Assembly: GCA_032250555.1 (NCBI GenBank)
Contig: JAVVFI010000001.1
Location: forward strand, 1-42,665
DNA: 42,665 nucleotides
Direction: 5' to 3'
DNA from: Sedimentisphaerales bacterium
Lineage (GTDB): Bacteria; Planctomycetota; Phycisphaerae; Sedimentisphaerales; Anaerobacaceae
The notes below the pieces were generated by a model, which was not told the origin of the DNA, did no database searches, and saw only the letters and a list, made by a program, of their open reading frames with translations. Shown here piece by piece: positions 19,432 through 35,968 of this stretch. Position 1 is the stretch's first letter. Every line of letters starts with the position of its first letter. Made by a program: the position numbers and the translations under genes.

Positions 19432-21879
19432 TCACTTCAATTCAATAACCGCAACATCCTCTGCTGCAAGTGTAAAGGTGGCTTTGCCATTGCGGAAGTT
19501 TATTTTTTGACCGTGAACTAACTCCCGATCCGACACCGAGTTTATTCCTTCCATAGTGATATTTACACTGCGGCGCTGCGAGCTGTCATTGAAAACTGTC
19601 AGGTATCGGCTTCCGAACCTTTCGACATAGATGTGCTCATTGTTCGAACGAGCGTGGGTAATCGGTTCGAAGCCCGCTTCAGCCACGAGCCTGCAAAGCG
19701 GAACATACTTCTTGAAGAGGTCTCTGTCCCGTTCATAGAGTTCGGGGCGGGTAAAGTAATGGCCCTGTGAAGCATTATGGCTGAAAAAGCCTGGATACAT
19801 ACCGTAGGCAAGACAACGCTTCATATATTTTTCCACAAGCTCATGGGAAAATTCTTCAAAACGTGTATTCATAAGGAAGCAATAGGGTTTGCCTTTGCAC
19901 ATTACCCGGCGGTAAAGCAGATCGCTGTCAGACATTGGGCGCCATACTCGGCTGGGATTCCAGTCGGTCTCCGTGCCCAGGACATCACACAGGGGTGTTA
20001 GCCAGCATAATCGGATGGGTGTGGAGTTTGCCATCATTAACTTTCCTATGCTGTGTATATCGCTGGAGATTGCACGAATATACTCGAAAGCTATCAGGCC
20101 GCGAAAGATACCGACTTTCCGGCTCTTCAGCGAGAAGGTCAAGGGTGTCTGAGTCGCTGCGAAATGGTCACGGCGAAAGTTCAGCTCGTCGGTCACATAA
20201 CCTTCGCTTGAATCGATATATTCTCCATCCAGGTCAGCCCTGCGACTGGTTCCATAGAGCCTTTCTTTAAGCTTTTCGTTCCATTTGTTCTTGAATTCTG
20301 TAACGTCTCCTTTGAGACCTGGCATGGAATTAATGCTCCAAACCGCACCGTCACACCAGGGCCTGTTAAGCAGCCTTGCGGAAAATTGCCCGGTCTCATC
20401 GTGATAGCCGCTCGTAAAAAATGCTTTAGCACGAATGTCTGACTTTTCATCTGCAAGCTTTCGAGCATGGCCAAGAGCGGCTTCAAGCGTCCGGGGCATT
20501 TCTTTGGGCATGCGCATCCACCAGGTCATCGGCTCGGTGTAGCGAAAGGTAATTATATCGTGCTCATCGTCCCAGGCTGTTTCATTATTGCCTTCCTTGA
20601 ATTTGAAACCGAAATCCTGCCAACCTTTAACTTCGCTGATTTTAGCAAAAGGCATCCAGAGGCCCTGCTCAGGTGTGCGGCAGCGGAATTGGTCATCGAA
20701 TATTTCATAATATCGAGATAGGGCCCCGCGAAATCCCCATTGCTGATCGAAATTAAACTTACAGAATCTCAAATGGGCCGTTGGTTTTTCAGGTGCAAGG
20801 CCAATATCATAAGCAAGAAACAATTCACCTGTCCGGCTGTTGTAGCCCGCGCGGAAGAAAGCCGGCCTGGCCATGTCGATACCCAGAGCATAGCCCTTAT
20901 CTGCAGCAGACACAGCCGCAAACGGATACCGCGAGAGTTGGCCGTTGGCTCCGGCTGAGAATCCATTGGCATTTATATACTCGCGGGCCGGTTCGACCAT
21001 CATACTTTGACGCGGGTCCTGTAACCAGTAGCATTGCTGGCGCCGAACGGGAACAGCATAAATCAAAGTTACAGCGCGGTCTTTCCCGGTTTTATCGCTA
21101 ATGGTGACATCATAAAATGTAGCCTGGTCAGTATGTTTTGTTTCACAAGTAAGCTCAAGGCCGAGAGCACTTCGTTCAAGTCGAACGAAATCAGAACCGG
21201 CAGCTACGTCACGAACCTGAAAACCTTCTTGCACCTGCCCCGTTAGTGAAACAGGCACGCCATCGAACATACCGGCTCCTTTCGGGGGCCTTATAATACG
21301 AAGCTCGGGATTGCGAAAGTAAGCCTTGCCCTTATGACGCCTCATAAGCATATGAAATGAAACTGACCTCACCGGCTTTTCAGGAATTACGGTCACTTCA
21401 GCTTTCTCCCACTGGCCTGTGCCAACGTTAAAAGAATCGGTCTGACCCCACAACGAGCTTCCGTCGGAATAAACGAGGTCCAGATAAAGGGAATAATCAC
21501 TGTTCCTACCGCCGCCAACTGATTCCGCTTTGCTCCAAGTTGTAGCAACAATCGGTTCGGGTTTGGTTTGGTTCAGTACAACCGTTTGGGAGACACCCCG
21601 CTGGGCCTGCGCATCGTCGCCGTTATCGCAAATAAAAATATTGCCCTGTTTTTCGAAGCCCTTTTGCCACGGTCTCCATGCATTTGGTTTAAGGAGGTTG
21701 TTTCCTGCATCGCGCACATCGAGCACTTTCTTTACGACAGTGCCATCAGGTTGTGCATAAAGCAATTGGGATGGCACCAGGGCGAAATATATCAGGAGAA
21801 GGAGACCGAAGATTCGAATAATATCACTTTTATTTCTACAATATACTGGACACAGGGGGCTTACGCTTGATTCTCTCAT
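19432..21879 (-). CDS. Large secreted/anchored hypothetical protein (no family recognised)
   Basis: Longest ORF starts at a TTG at 21912. The ATG at 21879 has GAGGA 10 nt upstream. Hydrophobic signal/anchor (IFGLLLLIYFALVPSQLLYA-QP). No catalytic motif recognised. Confidence 0.6.
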   Translation of the reverse strand: MRESSVSPLCPVYCRNKSDIIRIFGLLLLIYFALVPSQLLYAQPDGTVVKKVLDVRDAGNNLLKPNAWRPWQKGFEKQGNIFICDNGDDAQAQRGVSQTVVLNQTKPEPIVATTWSKAESVGGGRNSDYSLYLDLVYSDGSSLWGQTDSFNVGTGQWEKAEVTVIPEKPVRSVSFHMLMRRHKGKAYFRNPELRIIRPPKGAGMFDGVPVSLTGQVQEGFQVRDVAAGSDFVRLERSALGLELTCETKHTDQATFYDVTISDKTGKDRAVTLIYAVPVRRQQCYWLQDPRQSMMVEPAREYINANGFSAGANGQLSRYPFAAVSAADKGYALGIDMARPAFFRAGYNSRTGELFLAYDIGLAPEKPTAHLRFCKFNFDQQWGFRGALSRYYEIFDDQFRCRTPEQGLWMPFAKISEVKGWQDFGFKFKEGNNETAWDDEHDIITFRYTEPMTWWMRMPKEMPRTLEAALGHARKLADEKSDIRAKAFFTSGYHDETGQFSARLLNRPWCDGAVWSINSMPGLKGDVTEFKNKWNEKLKERLYGTSRRADLDGEYIDSSEGYVTDELNFRRDHFAATQTPLTFSLKSRKVGIFRGLIAFEYIRAISSDIHSIGKLMMANSTPIRLCWLTPLCDVLGTETDWNPSRVWRPMSDSDLLYRRVMCKGKPYCFLMNTRFEEFSHELVEKYMKRCLAYGMYPGFFSHNASQGHYFTRPELYERDRDLFKKYVPLCRLVAEAGFEPITHARSNNEHIYVERFGSRYLTVFNDSSQRRSVNITMEGINSVSDRELVHGQKINFRNGKATFTLAAEDVAVIELK

Positions 21880-21934
21880 CACTTCAATATCCTCAAAATG
21901 GCCTCCGAGCAAGAGTTCGGCGCTTTGAATATTA

Positions 21935-24900
21935 TTACGATATTAATTGCTGCTTATGGATTTTAACTTCTTTGATCCAGCAATACAGGACCGGCACGAC
22001 TAACATCGTAAGAATTTCAATCGTCATTCCGCCGAAGGAAGGTATTGCCATCGGTACCATTATGTCCGATCCACGCCCCGTGGAAGTCAGCACCGGAATA
22101 AGCGCCAGTATCGTCGTTGCAGTCGTCATCAGGCAGGGGCGAATTCTGCGTTTTCCCGCCTCTATCACCATCTGACGGGTCTGGTCAATACTCGCAGGAG
22201 TTTTGTTCTGGAACGATTGCTTAAGATATGTGCACATCACGACACCATCATCCGATGCTATCCCGAACAATGCCAGAAATCCCACCCATATTGCCACGCT
22301 CAGATTGATTGGATGCACCTGGAAAAGCTCCCGCATATTCACACCGAATACTTCGAAATCCAGGAACCATCCCTGACTATATAGCCATATCATCAAAAAG
22401 CCGCCCGACCAGGCAACAATTATACCTGAAAATACGAGCAGGCTGGTTGCAGTGGATTTAAACTGTAAATACAGAATTATAAATATGATAAACAGGGCCA
22501 AGGGTATAACTACCGAAAGCGTTTTGGCGGCACGAAGCTGGTTTTCATAGCTGCCGGCGAATGTATAACTTACTCCTTCCGGTATAACGAATTCACCGCT
22601 ATCGATCTTGGCCTTTAGATATTTCTGACAATCTTCAACGACATCTACCTCGGCATGGCCGGCCTTCATATCGAAGAGCACGTAGCCGACAAGAAATGTG
22701 TCTTCGCTCTTTATGGCCTGAGGCCCGCGCACGTAGCGAATTTCTGATAATTGGATAAGCGGAATCTGTGCCCCATCGGCCGATGGAACCAAAATCTTCC
22801 CTAACGATTCAATCTGGTCCCGTAATTCACGCGCATATCTTACCCTTACGCTATATCGCTCTCGTCCCTCAACCGTTGTCGTTATTCGCCTGCCGCCTAT
22901 CGCAACCTCAATAACGTCCTGTACCTGCCGAATCTTTATGCCGTATCTGGCAATGGCATCACGGTCTATATCAAATTCAATGTAGGGCTTGCCGACGATT
23001 CTGTCGGCTACTACCGCGGCTGGCTCAACAGAAGGGACTTCTTTAAGAAAGCGTTCAATCTCCAGGCCAACTCGATCGATAGTATCCAGGTCCGGCCCTT
23101 TTACTTTAACACCCATCGGCGCCCGCATGCCGCTCTGGAGCATAACTATTCGTGTAGCAATCGGCTGCAATTTTGGCGCGGAGGTCGAACCTGGAATCTG
23201 ACCTGCTTTTACAATCTCATCCCAGATGTCATCCGGGCTCTTAATTTTTGGCCGCCACTGTCTTTTTGGTCTGCCGTAACGGTCGGGTATCAGCTCGCCT
23301 TTCTCATCGCGAGGATATGTCCCCGTTTTTTTGTCATACTTAAAGCGAATACGATGCCCGTCTTTGTCTGTAATATATTCAGGCTTATAGTTGATAATCG
23401 TCTCGACCATAGAAATCGGCGCAGGATCAAGTGGAGATTCAACTCGGCCGATTTTTCCTACTACCGAATCTATCTCAGGGATGGCTTGAAAAGCTGTATC
23501 CTGTTTTTGCAAAACATCCAGGCACTCTCCGATAGAAGCATGAGGCATAGTCGTCGGCATATACAAAAAAGAACCTTCATCCAAAGGAGGCATGAATTCC
23601 TTACCGAGTCCCGGGAAGCTATGCATTCCAGCATACCAGAACCTGTTTGTCTTCAATCCATCCGGCACAAAGAAAAAGACCCTCCCGAACCCAAGCCATA
23701 CCATCATGCCAATGACTACAAGTGTACTGGGAATTGATAAAAAAGCTATTTTATGCCCGAGGCACCAACCTAAAATGTGAGGATAGAATTTCTGGAATAT
23801 TCGGAAAAACAAAAGCAGCCCACCGATGAGCAATGCCACAAACACCAGATTTCGCAGCATACCTTTATCCGAACCTAAGGGCAGCCAGTGGTTGGCGAGT
23901 ATAATCCCGACCAGAACAACGGCCAGGGCGTTGGCAATAATGGGCAGCAGACTGTTCATTCTCTTTGGGATGTAGTCTCTTGAGAGATGGTAAATTGCAA
24001 TTACGCCGATAAGAACGCCTATCCACCAGGTAAGCCAGAAAGCCGCGACAACAGCAGCGACGGCTAATAATCCGCCCAATAAGTACAGCCTCAACTTTTT
24101 AAGAGCGGTTTTTTTTGTAAAGAGGATATGTGCGGCCGGCGGAATTATAGTTAAAGCCACTATCACCGAAGCGACCAGCGCAAAAGTCTTTGTGAACGCC
24201 AGAGGCTTAAAAAGCTTTCCTTCTGCTCCGGTCATTGTGAAGACCGGCAAAAAACTGACAACCGTAGTCGAAACCGCCGTCAAAACCGCCCCGCCTACCT
24301 CGCTTGCTGCTTTGTAAATTACCTCCAGTTTATTATCATCCGGCCTCGCTTCGTTAAGATGTTTTAGAATATTCTCACAGACTATTATCCCCATATCGAC
24401 CATCGTTCCGATGGCAATCGCAATGCCCGACAGCGCTACAACATTAGCATCTATCCCGCCAACCTTCATAGCAATAAAGCACATCAGCACGGCCAACGGA
24501 AGCAGGCCGCTGATCAATACCGAGCTTCTCAGATGCACTACCAAAACGATAACAACGATGATAGTAACCAATATTTCCTCGGTCAGGGCAGTGTTTAATG
24601 TGCCTAAAGTTTCATAAATAAGCCCTGTACGGTCATAAAACGGAACAATCGTAACCTGTGAAACCGTGCCATCTGGCAAAGTCTTTCTTGGCAGTCCGGG
24701 TGATATCTCTTCGATTTTGGCTGTTACATTTTTAATAGCTTCAAGAGGATTATATCCATAGCGAACAACAACAACTCCCCCAACCGCCTCGGCTCCACCT
24801 TTGTCTAGTGCCCCTCTGCGCAATGCCGGCCCGAATGAAACCTTCGCGACGTCTTTAATATAAACTGGAACATTATCGTTAACCTTTATTACCGATCTTT

Positions 24901-25714
24901 CTATATCGGAAAGGTCTTCGATAAAGCCCAGACTGCGAATTACATACTCGGCCCTGTTAATCTCAATCGTCCTGGCGCCGACATCAATATTGGACATCTT
25001 TACCGCCATAAATATCTCATCGAGGCCGACATCGTATGCCCGCATCGCATCAGGGTCCACGTCTATTTGATATTCTTTAACAAATCCGCCCACAGAGGCC
25101 GCTTCGCTTACACCCTTGGCAGAGAGCAGGGCATAGCGGACTTGCCAGTCCTGGATACTCCGAAGCTCATCCAGATCCCAGCCTCCGGCCGGATTGCCCT
25201 TTTCGTCCCGGCCCTCAAGGGTGTACCAGAATATCTGTCCCAGACCCGTCGCATCAGGCCCTAATGCAGCCTGAACTCCTTCAGGTAGCGTTCCGGCTGG
25301 CAACGAATTCAGCTTTTCAAGAACCCGGCTTCGAGACCAGTAAAAATCGACATCATCCTCGAAAATAATGTATATTGAGGAGAATCCGAAAAACGAGTAA
25401 CTGCGGATAGTTTTGACACCTGGAATGCCTAAAAGTGATACCGTCAAAGGATATGTTATCTGGTCCTCAACGTCCTGCGGCGAACGCCCCATCCATTCGG
25501 TAAAAACTATCTGCTGGTTTTCGCCGATGTCCGGAATGGCATCCACTGGAACAGGGCTTCTCGGCAGGCCCCAGAGGTCCCAGTCGAATGGGGCCACCAT
25601 AACACCCCACCCGATGAACATTATCACTAAAAGGCCGACGATCAACTTATTTTCAAGACAAAACCGTATGACTTTGTCTACCAGTGATTGCTTATGAGAA
25701 GGTAGTTCTTCCAT
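21935..25714 (-). CDS. cusA: Heavy-metal efflux RND permease, CusA/CzcA family (oversized, 1259 aa)
   Basis: HME-RND hallmarks: AIGTMVDMGII in TM4 and EFMPPLDEGSFLYMPTTMP (compare E. coli CusA EFLPQINEGDLLYMPSTLP). Operon context with the MFP and OMF genes. Confidence 0.9.
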   Translation of the reverse strand: MEELPSHKQSLVDKVIRFCLENKLIVGLLVIMFIGWGVMVAPFDWDLWGLPRSPVPVDAIPDIGENQQIVFTEWMGRSPQDVEDQITYPLTVSLLGIPGVKTIRSYSFFGFSSIYIIFEDDVDFYWSRSRVLEKLNSLPAGTLPEGVQAALGPDATGLGQIFWYTLEGRDEKGNPAGGWDLDELRSIQDWQVRYALLSAKGVSEAASVGGFVKEYQIDVDPDAMRAYDVGLDEIFMAVKMSNIDVGARTIEINRAEYVIRSLGFIEDLSDIERSVIKVNDNVPVYIKDVAKVSFGPALRRGALDKGGAEAVGGVVVVRYGYNPLEAIKNVTAKIEEISPGLPRKTLPDGTVSQVTIVPFYDRTGLIYETLGTLNTALTEEILVTIIVVIVLVVHLRSSVLISGLLPLAVLMCFIAMKVGGIDANVVALSGIAIAIGTMVDMGIIVCENILKHLNEARPDDNKLEVIYKAASEVGGAVLTAVSTTVVSFLPVFTMTGAEGKLFKPLAFTKTFALVASVIVALTIIPPAAHILFTKKTALKKLRLYLLGGLLAVAAVVAAFWLTWWIGVLIGVIAIYHLSRDYIPKRMNSLLPIIANALAVVLVGIILANHWLPLGSDKGMLRNLVFVALLIGGLLLFFRIFQKFYPHILGWCLGHKIAFLSIPSTLVVIGMMVWLGFGRVFFFVPDGLKTNRFWYAGMHSFPGLGKEFMPPLDEGSFLYMPTTMPHASIGECLDVLQKQDTAFQAIPEIDSVVGKIGRVESPLDPAPISMVETIINYKPEYITDKDGHRIRFKYDKKTGTYPRDEKGELIPDRYGRPKRQWRPKIKSPDDIWDEIVKAGQIPGSTSAPKLQPIATRIVMLQSGMRAPMGVKVKGPDLDTIDRVGLEIERFLKEVPSVEPAAVVADRIVGKPYIEFDIDRDAIARYGIKIRQVQDVIEVAIGGRRITTTVEGRERYSVRVRYARELRDQIESLGKILVPSADGAQIPLIQLSEIRYVRGPQAIKSEDTFLVGYVLFDMKAGHAEVDVVEDCQKYLKAKIDSGEFVIPEGVSYTFAGSYENQLRAAKTLSVVIPLALFIIFIILYLQFKSTATSLLVFSGIIVAWSGGFLMIWLYSQGWFLDFEVFGVNMRELFQVHPINLSVAIWVGFLALFGIASDDGVVMCTYLKQSFQNKTPASIDQTRQMVIEAGKRRIRPCLMTTATTILALIPVLTSTGRGSDIMVPMAIPSFGGMTIEILTMLVVPVLYCWIKEVKIHKQQLIS

Positions 25715-25841
25715 AACTTTATCCGCTAAATCTGAACTTAATTATCTTTACACTATTCCCGCAGTCCCCCTGCGGCCAGATGGCAAAACAACCGCATACT
25801 ATCAGAGGCAGTATTCAGGCTCGGCACCATATGTCTTAAAG

Positions 25842-26216
25842 CTACTGAGTCTGCTGTTGGAACTGGGGAAGTTTGGCAATATACTTTTCCGGTTCCGCAT
25901 TGAATTTTTCTTCGCAGCCGGGGCAGCAGAAATACACCTTCTTGCCCTTGTACTCAACAAACAGAGCCTTATTGATAGGATTACCTTCCATAACCGGACA
26001 GGTTGTCTGCTCTATTGCAGCGGCAACCGCCTTAGCCGACTCTTCCATCATAGCCGCATGGTCGTGTCCTTCATGACCCTGCATCTGTGAAGTGGTTGTT
26101 TCAGCGGGTGTCGGCTCATCTTTCTTACAGCCATTTATCATAAAAAGCCCGACGAGCAACAGACTTACCACCATAAACATTACTTTGAATTGTTTCATTT
26201 TACCGTTCATTTTCAT
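25842..26216 (-). CDS. Lipoprotein with His/Met-rich linker and C-terminal YHS/TRASH-like metal-binding domain (paralogue 1)
   Basis: 124 aa. Lipobox-like MING-C. MQGHEGHDHAAMM stretch. TTCPVMEGNPINKALFVEYKGKKVYFCCPGCEEKF...KLPQF. Confidence 0.7.
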   Translation of the reverse strand: MKMNGKMKQFKVMFMVVSLLLVGLFMINGCKKDEPTPAETTTSQMQGHEGHDHAAMMEESAKAVAAAIEQTTCPVMEGNPINKALFVEYKGKKVYFCCPGCEEKFNAEPEKYIAKLPQFQQQTQ

Positions 26217-26241
26217 TTCCTTTCAAAACTTATTGTGATTA

Positions 26242-26850
26242 TCAATTCTTAAATTGAGGCAGCTTGCTCAGATATTTTTCAGGATTTTTAAGAAAAGGAG
26301 TTTCACACCCTGAACAACAGAAATATACTTTCTTGCCATTGTAGGTGGTGAAAATGCTCTTATTGATTTTCCCTCCCATGACAGGACAGACGGTTTGCTG
26401 AGCGGTTTGCATTTGCTTATTCGCGGTAGCCCCTGCCGTCATTGTACCGCATGTCTCCTTACACACCGACGCCATGCTGATTGGTGCAACTGAAACATTC
26501 CAAAGTTTCTTCCGCTGGACGGGGTTTAGAACAGCCAAAGCCTGTGCTCGAGCCTGTCTTTCGATTTCCAAAAGTTTTCGATTTTGCTCGGCTGTTAAAC
26601 TCAACACCTTAGTACGGGCCAGGATGGCCGAAGGGCTGTCCAAAAATATTTTCGTTTGCATTAATGTTTTGTACTGCTCCGCCATCAGCTTCGATGTCAG
26701 CGTATTAGAAGCCTTTGTTGTTTGAGTCTTAGCTGCACAATTTGGGCAGCAACTCTCTGCAAAAGCCGGGGCGGCCGCGACAAACATCGCCAACAAAAAT
26801 ATCACAGCCTTGAAGTTTTTTCTTTCAATCATTTTCCACCTTCCTTTCAA
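26242..26850 (-). CDS. Periplasmic LTxxQ (CpxP/Spy/ZraP-like) + YHS/TRASH-like fusion protein (paralogue 2)
   Basis: 202 aa. Sec signal (AAAPAFA-ESCCPNC). LSLTAEQNRKLLEIERQARAQ is an LTxxQ-type motif. C-terminal TVCPVMGGKINKSIFTTYNGKKVYFCCSGCETPF...KLPQF. Confidence 0.65.
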   Translation of the reverse strand: MKGRWKMIERKNFKAVIFLLAMFVAAAPAFAESCCPNCAAKTQTTKASNTLTSKLMAEQYKTLMQTKIFLDSPSAILARTKVLSLTAEQNRKLLEIERQARAQALAVLNPVQRKKLWNVSVAPISMASVCKETCGTMTAGATANKQMQTAQQTVCPVMGGKINKSIFTTYNGKKVYFCCSGCETPFLKNPEKYLSKLPQFKN

Positions 26851-26889
26851 AAAAACGTACCTTAAAATTTGGTTAATTTGCCAAACATT

Positions 26890-27249
26890 TTAATTATGAA
26901 ACTGCGGCAGCTTCGCAATATAACTTGACGGACTGGCTTTAAATTTATCTATGCAGCCCGGGCAACAAAAATAAACTTTTTTATCTTCGTATTCGGTATA
27001 AATGCTTTTCTCTATAGGCATACCCATTACCGGGCAGGTTGTTTGTTCTGCGGTCTGAACCAGTTTCGTTTTTGGCTCGCTCACTATCATAGCCTTATGT
27101 CTTTGCTCGTCCATTTCCTGCCTTGCTTCAATAAATGCCTGAGAATCCGTTTCTGAAGATTTGCATCCCATAATCGCTGTAATTCCAACAAGGAAAACAC
27201 TTACAGCCAACCATACTCTTATTGATTGTTTGCTTCTTTTCTTCATCAT
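26890..27249 (-). CDS. Lipoprotein with C-terminal YHS/TRASH-like metal-binding domain (paralogue 3)
   Basis: 119 aa. Lipobox-like AIMG-C. TTCPVMGMPIEKSIYTEYEDKKVYFCCPGCIDKF...KLPQF. Confidence 0.7.
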   Translation of the reverse strand: MMKKRSKQSIRVWLAVSVFLVGITAIMGCKSSETDSQAFIEARQEMDEQRHKAMIVSEPKTKLVQTAEQTTCPVMGMPIEKSIYTEYEDKKVYFCCPGCIDKFKASPSSYIAKLPQFHN

Positions 27250-27286
27250 TCATCCCCTAAAAAATAAACTCTAAAAAGTTTCAGTT

Positions 27287-29230
27287 TCAATTCGTTTCGC
27301 CCTTAATTTCCTCCATAACCTGGCCGCATTTGAGCATAGAGGCGCCAAAATAAGGATTACGGATATCCTCATCTGTTTGCAGCCAGTCTGCTCCCTTGTT
27401 ATTAAATGCCATCGGGCAATGAATATTGTAAAGGATCTTGCCCTGATACACTCCAAATTGCCCGACAACAGCAATAAGCTCATTGGAAAGCCCTTCAAAT
27501 CCTTCACGCATCGGCTCAATTGCATTGGCTGTTTTTATCTTATCTAATGCGGCCTTCATCTTCTTGCTGTTAGCCATCCACACATTATGAGCTTTGTCAC
27601 TGACCAAACCCATTTCAACCGCAGAAAGCGCTTCCAGTGTCTCGTTAGCCGCACGGGCAGCGCCTTCCTTCTCATCAGAAGCCAGGGCCTCATGTAATAA
27701 TAAATACTTTTCGACAACTCCCCAAAGCTGCCTGCGATACTCATCGGGCACTTCAAATATCTCGTTCTTATGACCGCTTTCCGCACTCATCATACTGGGC
27801 TTGGCCTGTATCTGAAGGGCCGAATCAATCTTAAAATTGCCGTTTGTAACAACAATCTCTCCTTCGGCGAGCCCTTCTTTAACCAAATAGTAATCACCCG
27901 CTCTTGGGCCAAGAACTACCTGCCTGCCCTCGAACGTCGGCTTATCTGCATTTGGTATTCGGACATACACAACTGCACGTTTACCTGTTATCAAAGGTGC
28001 AGTAGCGGGAATTACCAGGGGCGGCTGGTTGGGCTCATCGGCCGTAGCGAATAGTGACTCAGTAGGCACCAAATCCATTTCGCAAATGTCGCAGGTCCCC
28101 GCTTGATCCTTGACAACAGACAGATGCATAGGACAAATCCACTGGCCTGCCAGTTCTGGATCCATTGCAGCACCGCCCTGGGCAACTTTCGCACGCAATA
28201 CACTCCTGACAAACATTCCGGGCTTGAGTTTGCCGTCAGTATTATCAATGTTGAGGCGGACTTTTACCGTCCTGGTCTTCGCGTCGAGTATGGGATCACG
28301 GAAGCTTATTTTGCCTTTGAAGACCTGCCCCGGATATGCTTCCGTTAAGAACTCGACTTCCTGTCCGTATCGAATCCAGGGCAAATCAGACTCATAAGCA
28401 TCCAGCTTAACCCACAAACGCGATAGGTCTGCGAGAGTATAAATAGGGGTACCGGTATTAACATACATACCTTCTGTGGCGTTTTTATGGATGACTACAC
28501 CACCCATGGGTGAATAAATCGTAATATGAGTGACTGGTTCACCGGCGTTTTCGATTATATAAATTTGAGCATTGGTAAGACCAAGTAATCGAAGTTTGTC
28601 CCTCGCCGCTTCAAGTGTGGCAAGAGTGGTTCTTTTCATCAGGTCGGAAGTATTGTCATTGATACTGCCTACGGCTTTTAGAGCCTGAAGAAGTTCTGCC
28701 TGTGCGCTGATTAGCTCAGGGCTGTAAAGATCGACCATATGGTCACCCTTGTTAACCGTAATGCCCGTAAAATCAACATAAAGCCGGTCGATCCTGCCGG
28801 GAACCCATGCCGTGATATTTTTTACTCGGGTCTCATCATAATCAACCTTACCGACCATGCGGATTTCGGCCTCGACAAATTTTCGCTCAACAGGGGTCGT
28901 TTGAACTTCCATAAGTTTTAAGGCCTCTTGCGAGAAAGCAATTTGCCTTTCGCCGACAACACCTTCTTGAGCAACTTCCGGTATCAAATCCATAAAGCAA
29001 ATCGGGCACTTACCTGGCTTGGGAAGGTGAAACTGCGGATGCATAGAGCATGTCCACGTCGTCTGTTTTTCTGCGGCAGCCTGTTCACCGGGACGTTCAT
29101 GCTCTTGGCCGGAATGGGATTCCTGCAAGAGCGAGTGAACAACATAACCTGCAAGAAAGGTTACAACAACAAGAATAACGGTCTTAAATACTCGACTACT
29201 CAATAACGATTTGGCTCGTGTCATTTTCAT
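27287..29230 (-). CDS. cusB: RND periplasmic adaptor (CusB-like MFP) with two heavy-metal-binding (HMBD) motifs and a DUF3347-like C-terminal domain
   Basis: WTCSMHPQFHLPKPGKCPICFMDL and WICPMHLSVVKDQAGTCDICEMDL resemble the HMBD pattern. MFP barrel-sandwich/beta-barrel core lies between them. C-terminus has IHCPMAFNNKGADWLQ (DUF3347-like). Start placed at the ATG 29230 (AGGTGG 5 nt upstream); the ORF track starts at a GTG at 29239. Confidence 0.8.
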   Translation of the reverse strand: MKMTRAKSLLSSRVFKTVILVVVTFLAGYVVHSLLQESHSGQEHERPGEQAAAEKQTTWTCSMHPQFHLPKPGKCPICFMDLIPEVAQEGVVGERQIAFSQEALKLMEVQTTPVERKFVEAEIRMVGKVDYDETRVKNITAWVPGRIDRLYVDFTGITVNKGDHMVDLYSPELISAQAELLQALKAVGSINDNTSDLMKRTTLATLEAARDKLRLLGLTNAQIYIIENAGEPVTHITIYSPMGGVVIHKNATEGMYVNTGTPIYTLADLSRLWVKLDAYESDLPWIRYGQEVEFLTEAYPGQVFKGKISFRDPILDAKTRTVKVRLNIDNTDGKLKPGMFVRSVLRAKVAQGGAAMDPELAGQWICPMHLSVVKDQAGTCDICEMDLVPTESLFATADEPNQPPLVIPATAPLITGKRAVVYVRIPNADKPTFEGRQVVLGPRAGDYYLVKEGLAEGEIVVTNGNFKIDSALQIQAKPSMMSAESGHKNEIFEVPDEYRRQLWGVVEKYLLLHEALASDEKEGAARAANETLEALSAVEMGLVSDKAHNVWMANSKKMKAALDKIKTANAIEPMREGFEGLSNELIAVVGQFGVYQGKILYNIHCPMAFNNKGADWLQTDEDIRNPYFGASMLKCGQVMEEIKGETN

Positions 29231-29294
29231 TTCAGCCACCTATTATGTTGTAATATTACAATAGTAATTCGAGACAACCAAATGAACGATTGAA

Positions 29295-30602
29295 TCACTT
29301 TTCCAGAGCACCGCTGCTGATCGAGGACAGTTCCGTCCCGATAAGCATTTCCAGTTCAGCTAATTTCTGCTGATTATTCGTAACGACCCTTTCGTAGTCC
29401 AGCTCATATTTAAGCAGCATGCGCTGGGCATCTATAAGCGAGAGAAAATCTACCGTGCCTGCTTTATAGGCGGTTTCGGATGCCTGAACAAGCTCCTCGG
29501 CCTTGGAAACTAAAACATCCCCATAAAGATGTGTCTTTCTTCGACTATCTTCTATATCGTATAGAACCTCGAATACTCTCGATAGTAATTTGTTTTCGAC
29601 ATCTGTTCTTTGCGATTGAATTTTCCTTACATTCGCTTTTGCCTGTTGCTCAGCAGCCTTATAGCTGTTCTGCCACAGGGGGATATTCATTGAAAACATT
29701 AAAATCACAGGATCATCGCCGCTGCCTTTAACTCCGGGAGAAACCGCTCCATCGGTCTGAATCCAATCGAGACCTACTCCTATATCAGGATAGAATTTCT
29801 TTTTTGCAAGCTTCACACTGCTTTTTGCCGCCTGAATTTCCCAGCTAAGCTCGGCAAGCTCAGGATTCGCTCTTTTTAACGCCTGAATTATATGCTGCCG
29901 GTCAAGCGGTACATTTTCGGGCTGACTTTTTTCGGGCCAGGCCAATTCTGCATCAATTGGCCGATTAAGCACTGAATTAAGTTTTGCAACTGTCGGCTCT
30001 TTGAGCTGCTCCAGACTTTTTAAGATATCCTCAAGTTTAGCTAATTCCACCTGGACACGAATTATGTCAGGATGTATCGCTGCGGCTGTTAAGTATTTGA
30101 TTCGTGCGACTTCTTCGAAATGCTGAAGCAGTTCGAGATTCTGTTTTGCAATATCGATAGCCGTGGCAAGATATGCGAATTCGTAAAAAGCCTCTTTTAC
30201 CTGCCTGAATAGTTTCAACTTTGTTGTTTCGTATCTTTGCTTTGCAGCTTGTGCCTTTGCTGCGGCCACATCGGTTCTGGCCTGGAGTTTGCCAAACCAG
30301 GGGAATACCTGCATGATACCGAATTTTTGTTGCTGAGGGCCGGTCCGTGTTTCGACTTCCTCGATAAAATATCCGTATGTAAATTTCGGGTCACTTAATG
30401 CTCCTGCTTGTGGAATCTGCTCTAACGCCGCCTTCCACTGCTCAAATTTAGCCTCCAGTTCTGCATTATTGAGAGAGGCATAACGAAGATAATCCGAAAG
30501 TACGTATAAATCATTTGCATCAGCCGGCTGCTGCGAAGCTTTTGCGCACTGAACGAAAACAAATACTATTACTCCCAAAGTTAAAGCGGCTCGTTTGTTC
30601 AT
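29295..30602 (-). CDS. cusC: TolC-family outer-membrane efflux protein (CusC-like)
   Basis: 435 aa. Signal peptide. Two-repeat coiled-coil/beta-barrel OEP pattern. Operon position upstream of the MFP. Confidence 0.8.
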   Translation of the reverse strand: MNKRAALTLGVIVFVFVQCAKASQQPADANDLYVLSDYLRYASLNNAELEAKFEQWKAALEQIPQAGALSDPKFTYGYFIEEVETRTGPQQQKFGIMQVFPWFGKLQARTDVAAAKAQAAKQRYETTKLKLFRQVKEAFYEFAYLATAIDIAKQNLELLQHFEEVARIKYLTAAAIHPDIIRVQVELAKLEDILKSLEQLKEPTVAKLNSVLNRPIDAELAWPEKSQPENVPLDRQHIIQALKRANPELAELSWEIQAAKSSVKLAKKKFYPDIGVGLDWIQTDGAVSPGVKGSGDDPVILMFSMNIPLWQNSYKAAEQQAKANVRKIQSQRTDVENKLLSRVFEVLYDIEDSRRKTHLYGDVLVSKAEELVQASETAYKAGTVDFLSLIDAQRMLLKYELDYERVVTNNQQKLAELEMLIGTELSSISSGALEK

Positions 30603-31159
30603 ATTTGTCCCTCAATATTATCGACCTTCTTCTCTTTTTTCTTCTGATTTGCCATAGAAAGCTCTCTTACCAGCTCTTCTATTTCATTTGATAAATTCAT
30701 CAGAAATTCTTTAGAGGACATATCCAGAGCTTCTGATTCTTTGGCTATTGACCGAATTTTCTGTGTTCGATTAGAAAGAGCAGTTAACGACAAATCCGGT
30801 ACACTGCGATCAATTTCATCCAGTAAAAGCTGAACCCCTTCAGCTATTTCCGAAATTTCGGTAATATTTGATTCAATTTCAAGAGAGCTTAAATCCCCTC
30901 GCGTTATACCATACAGCTTCAGGTACAAATCATTTATAGGTATAACTACTGTTTTATATAGAACCGCATACAGTGTCAAGTAAATGAGTGCACCTAGAAC
31001 CAGCACATGCCAACTGTGCTCTAATATGAGCCCTAATACAGTCTGCCCCGGAGTAGAAATATATTGGTGTACTGCATATACCGCCATTCCTAAAGCAATC
31101 ACTAAAGCCGAGTATCCTGCAACTATCGATGCTAATGAATTTTCTCGTTTACTTTTCAT
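30599..31159 (-). CDS. Orphan two-TM + HAMP-like + coiled-coil membrane protein
   Basis: 186 aa. Two hydrophobic helices flank a short His-containing loop (HQYISTPGQTVLGLILEHSWH). VVIPINDLYLKLYGITRGDLSSLEIE...ISEIAEGVQLLLDEI fits the HAMP pattern. Its stop overlaps the cusC start (ATGA at 30599..30602). Confidence 0.55.
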   Translation of the reverse strand: MKSKRENSLASIVAGYSALVIALGMAVYAVHQYISTPGQTVLGLILEHSWHVLVLGALIYLTLYAVLYKTVVIPINDLYLKLYGITRGDLSSLEIESNITEISEIAEGVQLLLDEIDRSVPDLSLTALSNRTQKIRSIAKESEALDMSSKEFLMNLSNEIEELVRELSMANQKKKEKKVDNIEGQI

Positions 31160-31267
31160 GAGAAATTACCCCATTAAGCAATCTTTATTCTATCCCAAAA
31201 ACATATTTTAAGTCCATAGCAATTCAATATTAAAAAAAATTAATCAGATTTATTTTTACGGTAATAT

Positions 31268-31549
31268 TTACACTCTGCGTTTTTGATGAATCAATTTGAG
31301 AATTTCATCCAGCTTTTGCTGTTTTTCCCTCTCCGAGCTTCCTTTTATAGCTTGAGTTACACAGCTTTGAAAGTGTTTTTCGATAATATTTTCTTCGACT
31401 CCGACAAGCGCTCCTTTGATAGCGTATATCTGGTTTAAAATATCAATGCAGTATTTGCGACCTTCAACCATCTTTTGGACGCCTCGAACCTGTCCCTCAA
31501 TTCGCCTTAATGCGACCAGATTATCTTCATGACTTGGGTGTTTCTTCAT
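31268..31549 (-). CDS. csoR: CsoR/RcnR-family metal-sensing transcriptional repressor (CsoR-like, x-C-H-C)
   Basis: 93 aa. LRRIEGQVRGVQKMVEGRKYCIDILNQ...EKHFQSCV shows the conserved Cys...His-x3-Cys Cu(I) ligand pattern. First gene of the cus cluster. Confidence 0.85.
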   Translation of the reverse strand: MKKHPSHEDNLVALRRIEGQVRGVQKMVEGRKYCIDILNQIYAIKGALVGVEENIIEKHFQSCVTQAIKGSSEREKQQKLDEILKLIHQKRRV

Positions 31550-31582
31550 TTCTTATTCCTTATTTATCTTTCTACACCCAAT

Positions 31583-31599
31583 ATACCCCCCGGGGGTAT
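31583..31599. promoter_or_regulatory. Putative CsoR operator: ATACCCCC-C-GGGGGTAT perfect inverted repeat
   Basis: 8-bp perfect arms around a single central base, 34 nt upstream of the csoR ATG. AT-flanked G/C-tract palindromes are the known operator type for the CsoR/RcnR family. Confidence 0.65.
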
Positions 31600-31638
31600 G
31601 TTGTGTTCGGAAAAAACTTGTTTTTATGAAATTTAGTT

Positions 31639-32757
31639 TTAGTCCGATATCGTGCCGCCTGCAACGATATTATCAGCGTTATTATAAACCACAAGCCTTT
31701 GACCTGGACAAGGTGCGAATTGAGGCAGGTCAAAATCGACTGTTATAGAATTTTCACCAATATTAGTGAGTTTGCAAGGTTTAGGATCACCGTAGGAACG
31801 GATTTTCCCGAAGAATTTCCTGATCGGGACAAGTTCTTCAGGAATGAGCACATTTATCCGGTTTGCTCTGACGGTATGAGTGCTCACTTCTTCTCTTGAA
31901 CCTAATGCAATCGTGTTTGCCTCAGCATCAATCTTGCCGACATACAGTGGCTTACCGCCGGCATAACCAATACCCTGCCTTTGGCCAAGAGTGTAGTGAG
32001 CAATGCCTTTATGCGTACCAATTATGTTCCCCTGCATATCCGTTATGTCACCCTGCCGATTGGCCTCAGCGTCATCCAGAGCCAATCGATAATCACCCTC
32101 TCCCGCAAAACAAAGTTCCATACTTTCAGCTTTGTCCGCAACACTCAGATTTAATTGAGCGGCAGTCGAACGAACCTCATCTTTTGTCAACTCGCCTAAC
32201 GGCAGAATAAACCTCTGAAGTTTTTCTCTGGAAATTCCATATATAAAATAGCTCTGGTCCTTGGTTTGATCTTTCGCCCGGCCAAGCCGCGTCTTACCAT
32301 CAGCTTTGGAAACTCGCGCATAATGACCCGTAGCAAGATAGCTAATCCCGAATGTTTCCTCCAGGAAATCCCAAAGCAGGGAAAACTTAAGGAGCGTATT
32401 GCAGTCCACACAGGGATTGGGAGTTTCACCCCTCGAATAAGATTGACGAAATTGCTTTATTATCAGCTCTTCGAAAGGTTCAGTAACATCGACAAAATAA
32501 TGAGGTATATTCAATTCACCGCACACAAAGGCGGCATCGGCGCCGCAGCATCCTCTTTTATTTGTATTGCACGAGACAGGTATCTTCATCGTGATACCTA
32601 ATACGTCCCAGCCTTGCTCTTTCAGCAGATAGGCCGTAACGCTGCTGTCAACTCCACCGCTCATTAATACAGCGACAGGTTTTGAGCGTTCCTTGTCGGC
32701 TCGCCAGGGCGAAAAACTCGGCCCCAATAACTTGATATTAAACTTATCGGTTGTCAT
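31639..32757 (-). CDS. mnmA: tRNA-specific 2-thiouridylase MnmA
   Basis: 372 aa. VAVLMSGGVDSSV PP-loop and conserved Cys (NPCVDCN). Typical length. Confidence 0.9.
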   Translation of the reverse strand: MTTDKFNIKLLGPSFSPWRADKERSKPVAVLMSGGVDSSVTAYLLKEQGWDVLGITMKIPVSCNTNKRGCCGADAAFVCGELNIPHYFVDVTEPFEELIIKQFRQSYSRGETPNPCVDCNTLLKFSLLWDFLEETFGISYLATGHYARVSKADGKTRLGRAKDQTKDQSYFIYGISREKLQRFILPLGELTKDEVRSTAAQLNLSVADKAESMELCFAGEGDYRLALDDAEANRQGDITDMQGNIIGTHKGIAHYTLGQRQGIGYAGGKPLYVGKIDAEANTIALGSREEVSTHTVRANRINVLIPEELVPIRKFFGKIRSYGDPKPCKLTNIGENSITVDFDLPQFAPCPGQRLVVYNNADNIVAGGTISD

Positions 32758-32772
32758 AATTACCGAAAGTTT

Positions 32773-33693
32773 TTATTCGAACAGTGCCGTGCTGATATAT
32801 CGCTCGGCTGTGTCGCAAAGGACAGCAACTATCAGTTTGTCCGCATTTTCCTGTTTTTTACCTATCTTGATAGCTGCGGCCGCTGCGGCACCGGCTGATA
32901 TACCGGTAAAAATACCTTCTTCTTTAGCCAGGCGTTTTGCCATATCAAATGCCTCGGCATTTGATATCTGCACAACCTCATCAACAACTTCTAAATCCAA
33001 AACATCAGGGACGAAACCCGCCCCAATGCCTTGAATCATATGCGGGCCGGGCTTGCCGCCCGAAAGAACAGGTGATTCCGCCGGTTCAACAGCAACGATT
33101 TTGACGGATGGTTTGCGCGATTTCAGCACTTCTCCAACACCGGTTATTGTGCCGCCGGTTCCTACACCGGAAACAAAAATGTCCACTTGTCCATCGGTAT
33201 CAGCCCAAACCTCTTCAGCGGTTGTTTCTCTATGTATCTGGGGATTCGCAGGATTAAGAAACTGCTGTGGCATAAAAGCGCCATCGGTTGTTTCCACGAT
33301 TTCATTGGCCTTATTGATCGCGCCGGTCATACCTTCTTCTGCAGGTGTAAGTACAAGTGTGGCACCGAATAGCTTGAGTATCTTTCTTCGCTCGATAGTC
33401 ATCGATTCCGGCATAGTAAGTATCAGCTTATATCCCCTTGCCGCTGCGACCCACGCAAGTGCGATACCGGTATTACCGCTTGTAGGTTCAACGAGAGTAT
33501 CACCGGGCTTGATTTTACCGGCTTGTTCCGCTGACAATATCATATTTACACCGATACGGTCCTTGACACTGCTGGCTGGATTGAAGAACTCCAGCTTACC
33601 CGCTATCTTTGCTTTACAATCTCTGCTTACTCTGTTGAGTTGAACCAGCGGTGTTTTACCAATTAATTCAGTCATATCTTTTGCAATATTCAT
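32773..33693 (-). CDS. cysK: Cysteine synthase A (O-acetylserine sulfhydrylase)
   Basis: 306 aa. [10 protein letters not shown] (PLP Lys), [20 protein letters not shown] and [12 protein letters not shown] motifs. Confidence 0.9.
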
Positions 33694-33742
33694 TTAATCA
33701 ATCCTCTAAACAAAATGTTTAACAACACAAATTACAGAAATA

Positions 33743-35968
33743 TTATTTTTTTCGGCGCACTTTTACGAAAAAGTGATCACCGTTGTTTTTAATTTCCAAT
33801 ACTTCCTGGCCCTGATCGGCAAAGCTCGCCGGCACATTCCTTACCGGCTCCCCTTCATCAAGCAATACGCCAAGAATAGCACCTGTTTCGAGCTTTTCAA
33901 GCTCAAGTTTGGCTTTGACGAAGTTTAAGGGGCATCCGACACCACGCAAATCGATAACATGATTATTAGTCTCAGCTTCATCTACGATAGTTTCTTTTGC
34001 CACCGGCTCTATCTTAAACTTGAGATTGGCATCAAGGGACAGGTAAAGCTCTTCCACACGTCTTGTTAAATCCCGGGCCTGCGAATACAAATCCTCGATT
34101 GACTCTCTATCGCCCATACGCCAGTCAACCGCTTCGTCAAGGAGCTGCTGTGTCTGAGGTTTAACCCAGCCCGGTTCAATAAGACCTTTTGAAAATGCTG
34201 CAAATATTTCTCTGTCCTTTTTGGGCTCCAGACCGAACGTAACCATCAGCGCCCTGGCCGCGGCAACAACCGCTTTATAAATATTTTCACTGTGAACAGG
34301 TTCCGACTTGAGTGCATCTTTCGCTTCTTCGATATCCAGCTTGATTACGTCCGTCACACCAGCCCCGCACTCACCCGGCCCCCTGCCCGCCAGAGAAAAC
34401 GGCTCATTCGAACCATAGTCATAATAATAGTCCTCTGGAAATTGCTCCGAAGAAAAATCACTGTATTGACCAACCATTTTTTTTAGCTTTTCTTCATTAA
34501 TTTCACCGCCTTCAAAAGCTTCTGATAACAACTCAGGTATTTTTTTTGCCGGTACCGTACCAATTCTTTTGCCCAAATTTGCATCACCTTCAACAGTTTG
34601 TGCACCAACCAACACATCATAGCATGGCATCAGTCTGCCGTTGACTCTTTTGGCTTTTCCCTGGAATCCTATTGAGGCGATATAATGATGACCGCAGGAA
34701 TTCGGACAGCCGCTGATTCTTATGGTTGTCTTAGACAAATCGGCTGAAAAATCCTTATGGCTCAACTTCTCCGAAATCGCCTCAGCCAAACCTCTTGAAA
34801 GACATAGCCCGAGTTTGCATGTCGAAGCTCCGGCGCAGGCAACTATTTTGGAACCGCCGTCGCCAAATACATCAATGCTGAGTTTCTTAAGTTCGCTATG
34901 GACCTTGTCAATAGCTTCTTCGGCAACACCTGTAATGAGAAGGTCCTGCAGTTGAGTAGTCCTTATGAGTCCCTGGCCGTATTTAGCTGCGATTTGACCG
35001 ACTATGTTTAAATCATCCGCGGGTATATCGCCGTTTTTCAATCGTAATCGCACAGTAACCGACTTCTCAGGCGCCTTATATACTGAACTAATATCACGGA
35101 TTTGCGGCGATGGGTAAGGAAGCCCATCGGCCTTAAGTATATCTCTTTCGGCCCGGTACAGTTTGATAAATTCTTCAATACCGACTCTGGCGAGCACATA
35201 TCGTAATCTTGCTTTATGCTTGTTTGCCCTGTCACCGTATTGATCGAACAATCTCTTGACCGCCTCTGCAACTGCGAAAATCTCTTCAGCTTCTATGAAA
35301 TCTTCTATTTTCGCTGAAACTGCTGGATTCGAGCCAAGCCCCCCCGCGGCATAAACAGAAAAACCTTTCACTCCGTTCTTAATGTGGGCGAAAAAGCCAA
35401 GGTCTGCTATAGAAGCAAATGCACAATCCTTTGAACAGCCGGAAAAAACCAGTTTGAATTTTCTTGGCAAATTAAAAGAGCTTCTGTCCTGCAGGAGATA
35501 TTCTGCAGCGGCAATCGCATAAGGAGCAACATCAAATTCTTCTTCCGGACAAACCCCCGCCTCCGGACAGGCTGTAACATTACGAACAGTATTACCTCCC
35601 CCGCCGCGTGAAGAAAGCCCTGCTTCAAGCAGACCTTCCAGTACATCCGGCGTATTTTCGATATCTACCTCGTGAATCTGGATATCCTGTCTGGTAGTAA
35701 CGTGGATAATCCCATTGCCATAAGTCTTACTCAACTGGGCAATTCGTTCCAATTGATGCGGCAAAACCAGTCCCCCCCCGATACGTATTCGAATCATGAA
35801 TTTACCTGCTGTTCTTTGCTCATAAATTCCCATTGGTACTCGATAGGCTCTAAAAGCTACCGGTGACGTTTGGCCGTCAAGAAACTTTTTAACACCGCTG
35901 CGGTAGCCATGAGTATCTTCTTTGACGCTTTGGGGAATATGCAGAATTGGCTCTTGTTGTTCACTCAT
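33743..35968 (-). CDS. Assimilatory-type sulfite (nitrite/sulfite) reductase hemoprotein fused to an uncharacterised linker domain and a C-terminal TusA/SirA-like domain
   Basis: 741 aa. Siroheme-[4Fe-4S] Cys motifs CAGASTC (C-x5-C) and GCPNSC (C-x3-C). C-terminal about 75 aa carry VIDLRGVGCPLNFVKAKLEL, the CPxP active-site motif of TusA-like sulfurtransferases. Confidence 0.8.
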   Translation of the reverse strand: MSEQQEPILHIPQSVKEDTHGYRSGVKKFLDGQTSPVAFRAYRVPMGIYEQRTAGKFMIRIRIGGGLVLPHQLERIAQLSKTYGNGIIHVTTRQDIQIHEVDIENTPDVLEGLLEAGLSSRGGGGNTVRNVTACPEAGVCPEEEFDVAPYAIAAAEYLLQDRSSFNLPRKFKLVFSGCSKDCAFASIADLGFFAHIKNGVKGFSVYAAGGLGSNPAVSAKIEDFIEAEEIFAVAEAVKRLFDQYGDRANKHKARLRYVLARVGIEEFIKLYRAERDILKADGLPYPSPQIRDISSVYKAPEKSVTVRLRLKNGDIPADDLNIVGQIAAKYGQGLIRTTQLQDLLITGVAEEAIDKVHSELKKLSIDVFGDGGSKIVACAGASTCKLGLCLSRGLAEAISEKLSHKDFSADLSKTTIRISGCPNSCGHHYIASIGFQGKAKRVNGRLMPCYDVLVGAQTVEGDANLGKRIGTVPAKKIPELLSEAFEGGEINEEKLKKMVGQYSDFSSEQFPEDYYYDYGSNEPFSLAGRGPGECGAGVTDVIKLDIEEAKDALKSEPVHSENIYKAVVAAARALMVTFGLEPKKDREIFAAFSKGLIEPGWVKPQTQQLLDEAVDWRMGDRESIEDLYSQARDLTRRVEELYLSLDANLKFKIEPVAKETIVDEAETNNHVIDLRGVGCPLNFVKAKLELEKLETGAILGVLLDEGEPVRNVPASFADQGQEVLEIKNNGDHFFVKVRRKK

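Follow-up and report, generated by a model that had tools for sequence, protein, structure and literature searches.

How does a Cus-type copper pump of the resistance-nodulation-division (RND) superfamily receive periplasmic Cu(I) when its operon encodes no detectable CusF? To our knowledge, periplasmic Cu(I) acquisition by such pumps is understood only for enterobacterial CusF and CusB, and cusF is missing from most cus operons. The question is raised by a contig of a Sedimentisphaerales bacterium (Planctomycetota, Phycisphaerae; GenBank assembly GCA_032250555.1, contig JAVVFI010000001.1, positions 1 to 42,665 of the forward strand), the whole 42,665-nucleotide (nt) stretch of which we call the window. 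Between its cusB-like adaptor gene and its cusA-like pump gene lie three tandem minus-strand genes, here termed YHS-A, YHS-B, and YHS-C, which share a domain running from CPVM through CCxGC to KLPQF; coordinates and pattern both agree with a preliminary description of the sequence, in which the three proteins were proposed to replace CusF. We consider it somewhat probable, from the features set out below, that they are membrane-tethered periplasmic Cu(I)/Ag(I) modules that pass metal to CusB and CusA and thereby form a nonhomologous analogue of CusF, and the view of them as a CusF replacement appears to have good comparative support.

That support comes from a scan of one genome per species (216 relatives), from which the 80 best loci were taken, almost all of them from Planctomycetota (Phycisphaerae/Sedimentisphaerales). 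The selection of loci relied on how closely they resembled the query, with the seed pattern Y[KEN][GD]KKVYF, so that conservation of this particular stretch is by construction. At least 1,287 close homologues of YHS-C exist, annotated merely as "YHS domain-containing protein," and those with named sources come from metagenome-assembled genomes of Planctomycetota, Phycisphaerae, or Sedimentisphaerales.

Three YHS proteins with export signals

The three genes are as follows.

YHS-A: 26890-27249, minus strand; 119 amino acids (aa), Pfam YHS 32.7 bits; lipoprotein-type signal with Cys29, charged linker, YHS domain.
YHS-B: 26242-26850 (TTG start), minus strand; 202 aa, Pfam YHS 33.8 bits; Sec signal.
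YHS-C: 25842-26216, minus strand; 124 aa, Pfam YHS 39.7 bits; lipoprotein-type signal with Cys30.

The real start of YHS-B is probably the ATG at 26832 (196 aa), which is the form used by gene callers and found in homologues; gene callers likewise begin YHS-C at M3 (122 aa).

Common to all three is a C-terminal module of about 55 aa, Q-x2-CPVM-x14/15-KKVYFCC-x-GC-x10-Y[IL][AS]KLPQF, which is followed by 2, 2, and 5 residues (HN, KN, and QQQTQ). The gap after CPVM measures 14, 14, and 15 residues and not the 15 to 16 first reported, but the remainder of the pattern was right. When a profile of the module is run against a six-frame translation of the whole window, it matches solely the three YHS places (E values of 6e-37 to 2e-31), and the shared pattern is thus not due to chance. 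The stretches that encode the domain are 56 to 62% identical in DNA, as expected from the earlier remark that the copies are diverged, and this level of identity indicates that the YHS duplication is old.

N termini were judged by eye from the sequence, without a predictor. Two lipobox-like signals and one Sec signal had been described, and all three can be read directly: YHS-A and YHS-C each have a basic N terminus and a hydrophobic stretch that leads into IMGC (Cys29) and INGC (Cys30), respectively, and the signal of YHS-B ends in AFA, immediately before ES. Compared with the lipobox consensus [LVI][ASTVI][GAS]C, the two window motifs are noncanonical at position -2. Putative lipidation nevertheless finds support in the free-standing homologues, 77 of 81 of which combine a hydrophobic stretch with an xxGC lipobox, canonical LAGC and LSGC included. 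The linkers behind these signals vary. That of YHS-A is charged and without a His/Met motif; YHS-C consists of a His/Met-rich linker, a helix, and the YHS domain (landmarks Q70, C73, M76, C97, C98, C101, and LPQF at 116-119), and the His/Met-rich stretch that had been pointed out, MQGHEGHDHAAMM, is located at its residues 45-57. Linkers with at least four His and Met residues occur in 34 of the 81 free-standing homologues.

YHS/TRASH domains have long been predicted to bind metal. The assignment of the three proteins to this group, originally made by eye, withstands a search with family models: all three exceed the gathering score of Pfam YHS (PF04945; 30.3 bits), by small margins, and the listed homologues all carry PF04945. 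Matches to the TRASH model are subthreshold, and no NCBIfam model matched the three proteins. The ligands of a canonical YHS/TRASH domain are D/C-x2-C...C-x3-C (PMC4626032), and we mapped their positions by means of an alignment to phenol hydroxylase together with the ligand description in the same source. Three canonical ligand Cys residues are retained (C73, C97, and C101 in YHS-C, with equivalents in YHS-A and YHS-B). The first ligand position, which is Asp in YHS and Cys in TRASH domains, holds neither residue and is instead an invariant Gln (Q70), and the "S" position of YHS is an invariant Cys (C98), which creates a CC doublet (FCCxxC). The Met of CPVM sits after the first ligand Cys, and both the extra Met and the extra Cys are invariant. 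By these sequence criteria, YHS-A, YHS-B, and YHS-C are real YHS domains, with a site that appears remodeled toward more thiolate and thioether ligands. YHS selenoproteins have been reported in deltaproteobacteria; selenocysteine variants of the Cys ligands were considered here and rejected, since neither the 80 loci nor the window has an in-frame TGA at the ligand positions.

The AlphaFold2 (AF2) models of YHS-B and YHS-C show a module of a beta-hairpin plus helices with a predicted local distance difference test score (pLDDT) of 82 to 88; the confident regions of YHS-B are residues 62-112 and 145-196, and the linker of YHS-C falls below 50. Among solved structures, sequence comparison relates the module to one alone, the phenol hydroxylase YHS domain (E value of 5e-5). 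Foldseek ranks the YHS domains of the monooxygenases phenol hydroxylase and ToMO first in the PDB, with ribosomal L24e and the TRASH domain of ZMYM5 next; all of these matches are weak (E values of 0.05 to 3), and no PDB entry matched the YHS models at an E value of ≤0.001.

The terminal KLPQF, put forward as a possible docking peptide for CusB or CusA, is indeed conserved in homologues, with LPQF present in 98 of 100 domains from the 80 loci, but a free C-terminal tail is not required. LPQF lies exactly 2 residues before the stop codon in 68 of the 98 domains, is followed by 1 to 25 residues in fusions to CusB, and is internal in the two-domain proteins P0027, P0069, and P0092. AF2 models it as a short ordered helix (pLDDT of ~75), and most members of the wider family of FCCxxC-type YHS domains lack it. 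As judged from this distribution, LPQF is best described as a subfamily-specific end of the fold, which may or may not form an interaction surface.

YHS-B has an additional N-terminal region, helical and conserved among its homologues, which had been taken for a CpxP/Spy-like domain. Two LTXXQ-type motifs are present, but all family scores are subthreshold and Foldseek offers no CpxP or Spy match. The motifs are LTAEQ and LNPVQ (LTPxQ in most homologues), and both are in register with those of Spy in a profile alignment. Pfam LTXXQ (PF07813) scores 9.7 bits against YHS-B (E value of 1.9; cutoff of 24.3 bits) and gives a weak match in 7 of 9 YHS-B homologues (best E value of 0.0056), and a profile of the region finds Spy in the PDB with an E value of 0.15 and CpxP with E values of 1 to 5. 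Like CpxP, Spy, and ZraP, the region is predicted to be periplasmic and helical (AF2 helices at 81-100 and 104-110) and has two LTXXQ-type motifs; unlike CpxP and Spy, it comprises only ~50 confidently modeled residues, flanked by CCxxC and CxxxC motifs that those proteins lack. A CpxP/Spy fold was rejected as a Foldseek assignment, the list of matches being dominated by YHS/TRASH domains, and a CpxP/Spy-like character of the helical region is no more than plausible. The mature N terminus of YHS-B is ES-CCPNC (residues 28-32), whose CC pair is kept in at least 90% of full-length homologues, and CKETC (CxxxC, ~125-129) precedes the YHS domain. Some YHS-B homologues (262 aa) have a second YHS domain.

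Linkage to RND pumps and fusion to the adaptor

If these proteins serve a metal pump, their genes should recur beside RND metal efflux operons in other genomes, as the preliminary description foresaw, and YHS genes stand beside RND genes in 74 of the 80 loci. The arrangements are as follows.

cusB–YHS–cusA: 58 of 80 loci.
OEP–YHS–cusB–cusA: 8 of 80 loci.
Truncated contig with one RND neighbor: 7 of 80 loci.
Beside a convergent RND operon: 1 of 80 loci (L020).
csoR–ORF186–YHS: 1 of 80 loci (L050).

An independently Pfam-annotated locus (L081) reads OEP–CusB(HMBD, YHS)–YHSx2–ACR_tran, and the gene for a YHS protein of Verrucomicrobiota adjoins an OEP gene. Most loci (62 of the 80) have a single YHS copy; 16 have two and 2 have three, which makes the window, with its three genes, unusual. 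The three paralogues also differ in their distribution. YHS-C has an orthologue beside cusA in almost every one of the 80 loci. For YHS-B, a single locus (L019) offers an orthologue, and ~20 full-length homologues come from metagenomes. None of the 80 loci holds a close orthologue of YHS-A, whose nearest domains include copies fused to CusB in a 55-aa neighbor-joining tree that is weak and not robust.

Such fusions bear on the likely partner of the module. The CusB of the window begins with an HMBD, has a barrel-sandwich core and a further HMBD as an insert, and ends in DUF3347. In 17 loci, a YHS domain is fused to the C terminus of CusB, where it comes after the conserved "...NGNFKIDSALQIQAKPSMM" adaptor end and a His-rich linker, and in two loci (L060 and L077) this fused copy is the sole YHS domain. 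Among 63 CusB-like open reading frames (ORFs), which include split fragments from two loci, the C terminus is plain in 33, carries YHS in 18 (17 single, 1 double), and carries DUF3347 in 12; YHS and DUF3347 never occur together on one C terminus. DUF3347 and YHS thus look, from these sequences, to be alternative C-terminal modules of CusB with no detectable kinship. The end of DUF3347 has an invariant CPM...NPYFG..M..CG motif, and its homology to YHS was rejected, hhalign giving a probability of 0.2% and aligning only "CP."

A parallel exists in Cupriavidus metallidurans, in which SilB bears a C-terminal metallochaperone domain of the SilF/CusF type (PMC10407283). That the YHS module occurs free or fused, as the CusF fold does, is the strongest available argument that it works physically with the adaptor, and by this analogy it would be a partner of CusB in the way that CusF is.

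Beyond the loci, the profile of the wider FCCxxC-YHS family matches 9,609 representative clusters (E value of ≤1e-3). Many of its members are arrays, which reach 9 copies; examples come from proteins of 2065 and 597 aa and from an Elusimicrobia protein with 6 copies, and fusions to planctomycete leucine-rich repeat (LRR)- and cytochrome-like proteins are seen as well. The array and fusion examples, all from outside the window, are P0235, P0236, P0237, P0247, P0257, and P0275, of which P0247 is a lipoprotein with the order YHS–HMBD–YHS and a ~40-residue His/Asp-rich stretch.

A copper-type operon without a detectable CusF homologue

The genes are ordered csoR–ORF186–OEP–cusB–YHS×3–cusA with short intergenic gaps, and the features other than the YHS genes are as follows.

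cusA: 21935-25714, minus strand; CusA-like pump of the heavy-metal efflux RND (HME-RND) type, 1259 aa; TIGR00914 784.9 bits.
cusB: 27287-29239, minus strand; CusB-like periplasmic adaptor, 650 aa; Pfam HlyD_D23 1.3e-74, HMBD twice, DUF3347 1.1e-20.
OEP gene: 29295-30602, minus strand; outer-membrane factor, CusC/TolC-like; Pfam OEP 2.4e-42.
ORF186: 30599-31159, minus strand; membrane or coiled-coil protein, 186 aa; no significant family match.
csoR: 31268-31549, minus strand; CsoR-family repressor; Pfam Trns_repr_metal 9.4e-26.
CsoR operator-like palindrome TACCCCCGGGGGGTA: 31584-31598, no strand; TAC-X9-GTA with G-tracts, ~35 nt upstream of csoR.

CusA passes the cutoff of TIGR00914 for the CusA/CzcA family (701.45 bits), and of all PDB entries it matches E. 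coli CusA best (3k07; E value of 2e-193). The residues M573/M623/M672 of the E. coli Cu(I)/Ag(I) Met triad find their aligned counterparts in M719/M769/M858 of the window protein. The motif in transmembrane helix 4 (TM4), AIGTMVDMGIIVCEN, reads AIG-x3-D-x6-EN; it is without the first Asp of divalent-cation pumps, and we take it, by the HME-RND classification, to be of the monovalent type. The protein is also longer than its E. coli counterpart (1259 versus 1047 aa), with a hydrophobic insertion of ~175 aa between its halves (~527-702), which may add transmembrane helices, and, close to the Met triad, a second insert of ~36 aa (780-815) in the periplasmic domain.

The repressor carries a Cu(I)-type C-H-C signature (C34...H59-x3-C63); its best NCBIfam match is RicR, at 75 bits against a model cutoff of 175. 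The palindrome at 31584-31598, ATACCCCCGGGGGGTAT, is perfect, and TAC-X9-GTA with G-tracts is the experimentally defined operator of CsoR (PMC3902906). In 12 related loci, csoR is preceded by the same motif at a distance of 40 to 55 nt. At locus L004, the motif (9681-9695), embedded in the same "TTTTCCGAACACA" promoter context that precedes csoR in the window, stands immediately before a stand-alone YHS gene located after mnmA, so that this YHS gene appears to be kept in the copper regulon without an adjacent pump. Taken together, the Met triad of CusA, the C-H-C signature of CsoR, and the canonical CsoR operator support copper specificity of the operon, as far as sequence motifs can indicate it.

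No CusF homologue was found in the window (best E value of 4.4) or in the 80 loci by tblastn with the E. coli CusF sequence as the sole query. The YHS proteins are not themselves members of the CusF family, since Pfam gives YHS only and the predicted fold is not a beta-barrel; with no sequence similarity found between the two, any relation of YHS to CusF is one of functional analogy.

Several features of the surrounding DNA deserve mention. ORF186, which overlaps the OEP gene by 4 nt, has a hydrophobic N-terminal region and a coiled-coil-like tail, and among the loci it has a homologue in L050 only, in the order csoR–ORF–YHS. The 127-nt spacer between YHS-C and cusA (25715-25841) is strongly conserved as DNA in L001, L002, L003, L005, L006, and L019 and contains, at 25759-25775 on the minus strand, a 6-bp hairpin (CCGCAG-GGGGA-CTGCGG), one pair of which changes from A-U to G-C in relatives. 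Such an element within the operon could act in regulation or processing and so set the ratio of chaperone to pump. Consensus scans for an internal terminator or promoter between the YHS genes and cusA gave chance-level signals only, and a structured RNA in the spacer was rejected, there being no Rfam match across 25600-31800 and a folding z score (0.35) that is not unusual. Directly downstream of cusA, an 826-aa ORF (19432-21912) has no Pfam match; it may be cotranscribed with the pump, given that the same position is kept in the closest relatives, L001, L002, L005, L006, and L019. Directly upstream of the Cus operon is a sulfur-assimilation and cysteine cluster (31639-41386), comprising mnmA, a cysK-like PALP enzyme, a sulfite reductase–TusA fusion, ThiF, an O-acetylhomoserine sulfhydrylase-like enzyme, PAPS reductase, a PHO4-family transporter, and an Rrf2 regulator. 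The stand-alone YHS genes of L004, L007, and L068 also adjoin mnmA or cysK/Rrf2 genes.

Carrier, buffer, or structural module

From the combination of domain, export signal, and gene neighborhood, we infer that the YHS site binds metal, that the metal is Cu(I) or Ag(I), that it is transferred to CusB and CusA, and that two of the proteins are anchored in a membrane by lipidation. In the mechanism that we propose, the exported YHS proteins, two lipid-anchored and one soluble, would be coexpressed with a CsoR-controlled CusCBA-type pump. The Cys of CPVM, the C-C-x2-C motif, and the Met of CPVM would form a Cys3(+Cys/Met) site in place of the canonical D/C-x2-C...C-x3-C, and this site would bind Cu(I)/Ag(I), the planctomycete being anaerobic and its periplasm reducing. 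An oxidizing periplasm would make a thiolate site unworkable. The module would then act in substrate capture and hand-over, delivering metal to the HMBD/DUF3347 modules of CusB and to the Met triad of CusA, with the flexible His/Met-rich tether of YHS-C probably making the first contact. YHS-C, near-universal in the loci, would be the ancestral component, and YHS-A and YHS-B would be lineage-specific extras.

Three known systems offer comparisons, as follows.

(i) CusF and SilF, like the YHS proteins, are small, exported, and encoded inside a Cu/Ag RND operon. Both kinds of protein occur free-standing or fused to the C terminus of the adaptor (as in the SilB domain, PDB accession number 2L55), both are absent from many cus operons, and the job proposed for both is capture of periplasmic Cu(I) and its transfer to CusB/CusA. 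CusF, however, is an OB-type beta-barrel with a His/Met2/Trp site, whereas the YHS proteins are predicted to have a YHS/TRASH treble-clef-like fold with Cys3(+Cys/Met); CusF is soluble, whereas the YHS members, by their lipoboxes, are mostly predicted lipoproteins; and cusF lies between cusC and cusB, whereas the YHS gene lies between cusB and cusA in 1 to 3 copies.

(ii) The archaeal TRASH-domain copper-binding protein CopM of Sulfolobus (copTMA/copRTA) and the N-terminal YHS/TRASH domains found in Cu P-type ATPases belong to the same domain superfamily, and like the YHS proteins they accompany a copper exporter and have a predicted role in Cu hand-over. These domains are cytoplasmic and partner a P1B-ATPase, whereas the YHS proteins are exported and accompany an RND pump; their site is the canonical C/D-x2-C...C-x3-C, and in these cytoplasmic domains the CC doublet, CPVM, and LPQF are all lacking.

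(iii) The YHS domain of the Mycobacterium phlei adenylyl cyclase is the only one with an experimental copper response (PMC4626032). The three Cys positions are common to it and the present domains, but its first ligand is Asp where Gln is found here, and it is a cytosolic sensor module on an enzyme, with no transport context.

Our search of the literature on periplasmic or exported YHS proteins, a link of YHS to Cus-type RND pumps, YHS fusion to CusB, and DUF3347 returned nothing relevant.

Several considerations weigh against a dedicated copper carrier. TRASH/treble-clef sites are often structural Zn sites, and phenol hydroxylase, the sole PDB match in both sequence and fold, is a weak one. 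The Met of CPVM is not kept in the wider FCCxxC subfamily, in which CPVS, CPVL, and CPIS are found. The locus counts are not independent events, since the loci were selected by similarity, come from nearly one phylum, and are phylogenetically clustered; 5 of the 80 (L004, L007, L025, L068, and L074) have no RND gene in reach; and the absence of CusF was judged with the E. coli query sequence alone. Functional work on YHS domains is limited to one study, of an adenylyl cyclase in the cytosol (PMC4626032). Finally, the wider family includes tandem arrays of 2 to 9 domains and fusions to unrelated planctomycete proteins, which a general binding or buffering module fits equally well as a dedicated chaperone does.

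The strongest alternative is that the proteins are a periplasmic metal sponge or buffer of the SilE/PcoE kind. The YHS lipoproteins would tie up Cu(I)/Ag(I), possibly along with further thiophilic metals, on the surface of the membrane and so reduce free metal, with no specific hand-over to the pump, and extra YHS copies would simply add capacity. The 1 to 3 genes per locus, the arrays of up to 9 domains per polypeptide, and the common His/Met- or His/Asp-rich linkers would all suit such a role, as would the stand-alone YHS genes that have no adjacent pump and still have a CsoR operator in front (L004 and L050). A sponge does not, however, call for the cusB–YHS–cusA position that is fixed in 58 of the 80 loci, and unless the module is a physical partner of the pump, it is difficult to see why it has repeatedly become covalently fused to CusB; we regard this alternative as unlikely.

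Less probable still is that the Cys cluster holds a structural Zn and that the domain helps to assemble, anchor, or regulate the CusB hexamer or the tripartite pump, with no part in carrying substrate. The place of the YHS/TRASH fold among the treble-clef zinc fingers, with the YHS domains of phenol hydroxylase and ToMO, L24e, and the ZMYM5 TRASH domain as the nearest solved relatives, would accord with this role, as would the presence of the same domain on unrelated planctomycete proteins with LRR and cytochrome-like regions and an ordered, invariant LPQF of the sort that suits an interaction surface. Yet the replacement of the first ligand by Gln and the addition of Cys and Met make the site resemble 3-coordinate thiolate and not a Cys4 Zn site, metal-rich linkers lie beside the domain, and a Cu-type regulator controls the operon. 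A chaperone or binder for another thiophilic metal (Zn, Cd, Hg, or Au), for which Cys-rich sites, HMBD modules, and DUF3347, all of them common in czc-like operons too, might speak, is very improbable in view of the retained Met triad of CusA, the missing first Asp of the divalent-type TM4 motif, and a regulator whose C-H-C signature is of the Cu(I) type and whose operator is of the CsoR type.

Membrane-tethered modules that pass Cu(I)/Ag(I) to CusB and CusA thus remain our preferred reading. A bolder version of it holds that FCCxxC/LPQF YHS lipoproteins are a new class of Cys-based periplasmic Cu(I) metallochaperones that take the place of CusF in anaerobic bacteria of the Planctomycetota-Verrucomicrobiota-Chlamydiota (PVC) group, modular in design and operating here as a three-copy relay, which we consider a doubtful prospect with little likelihood. 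YHS-C would provide His/Met capture in such a relay, YHS-B would be a CpxP-like holdase or sensor, and LPQF would dock to CusB/CusA, with the modules of the class being swapped as free, CusB-fused, or tandem forms.

What is new here is a different fold and a different chemistry for the proposed role of periplasmic metallochaperone to an RND copper pump, and the 80 related loci point to a thiolate-based YHS module, predicted to be lipid anchored, that is interchangeable with a C-terminal domain of the adaptor. If the proposal is true, it would give the large and almost uncharacterized YHS family its first extracytoplasmic function and would represent convergent evolution of a chaperone design that is either free or fused to the adaptor, and the 55-aa domain would offer a simple model of Cu(I) trafficking in anaerobes.

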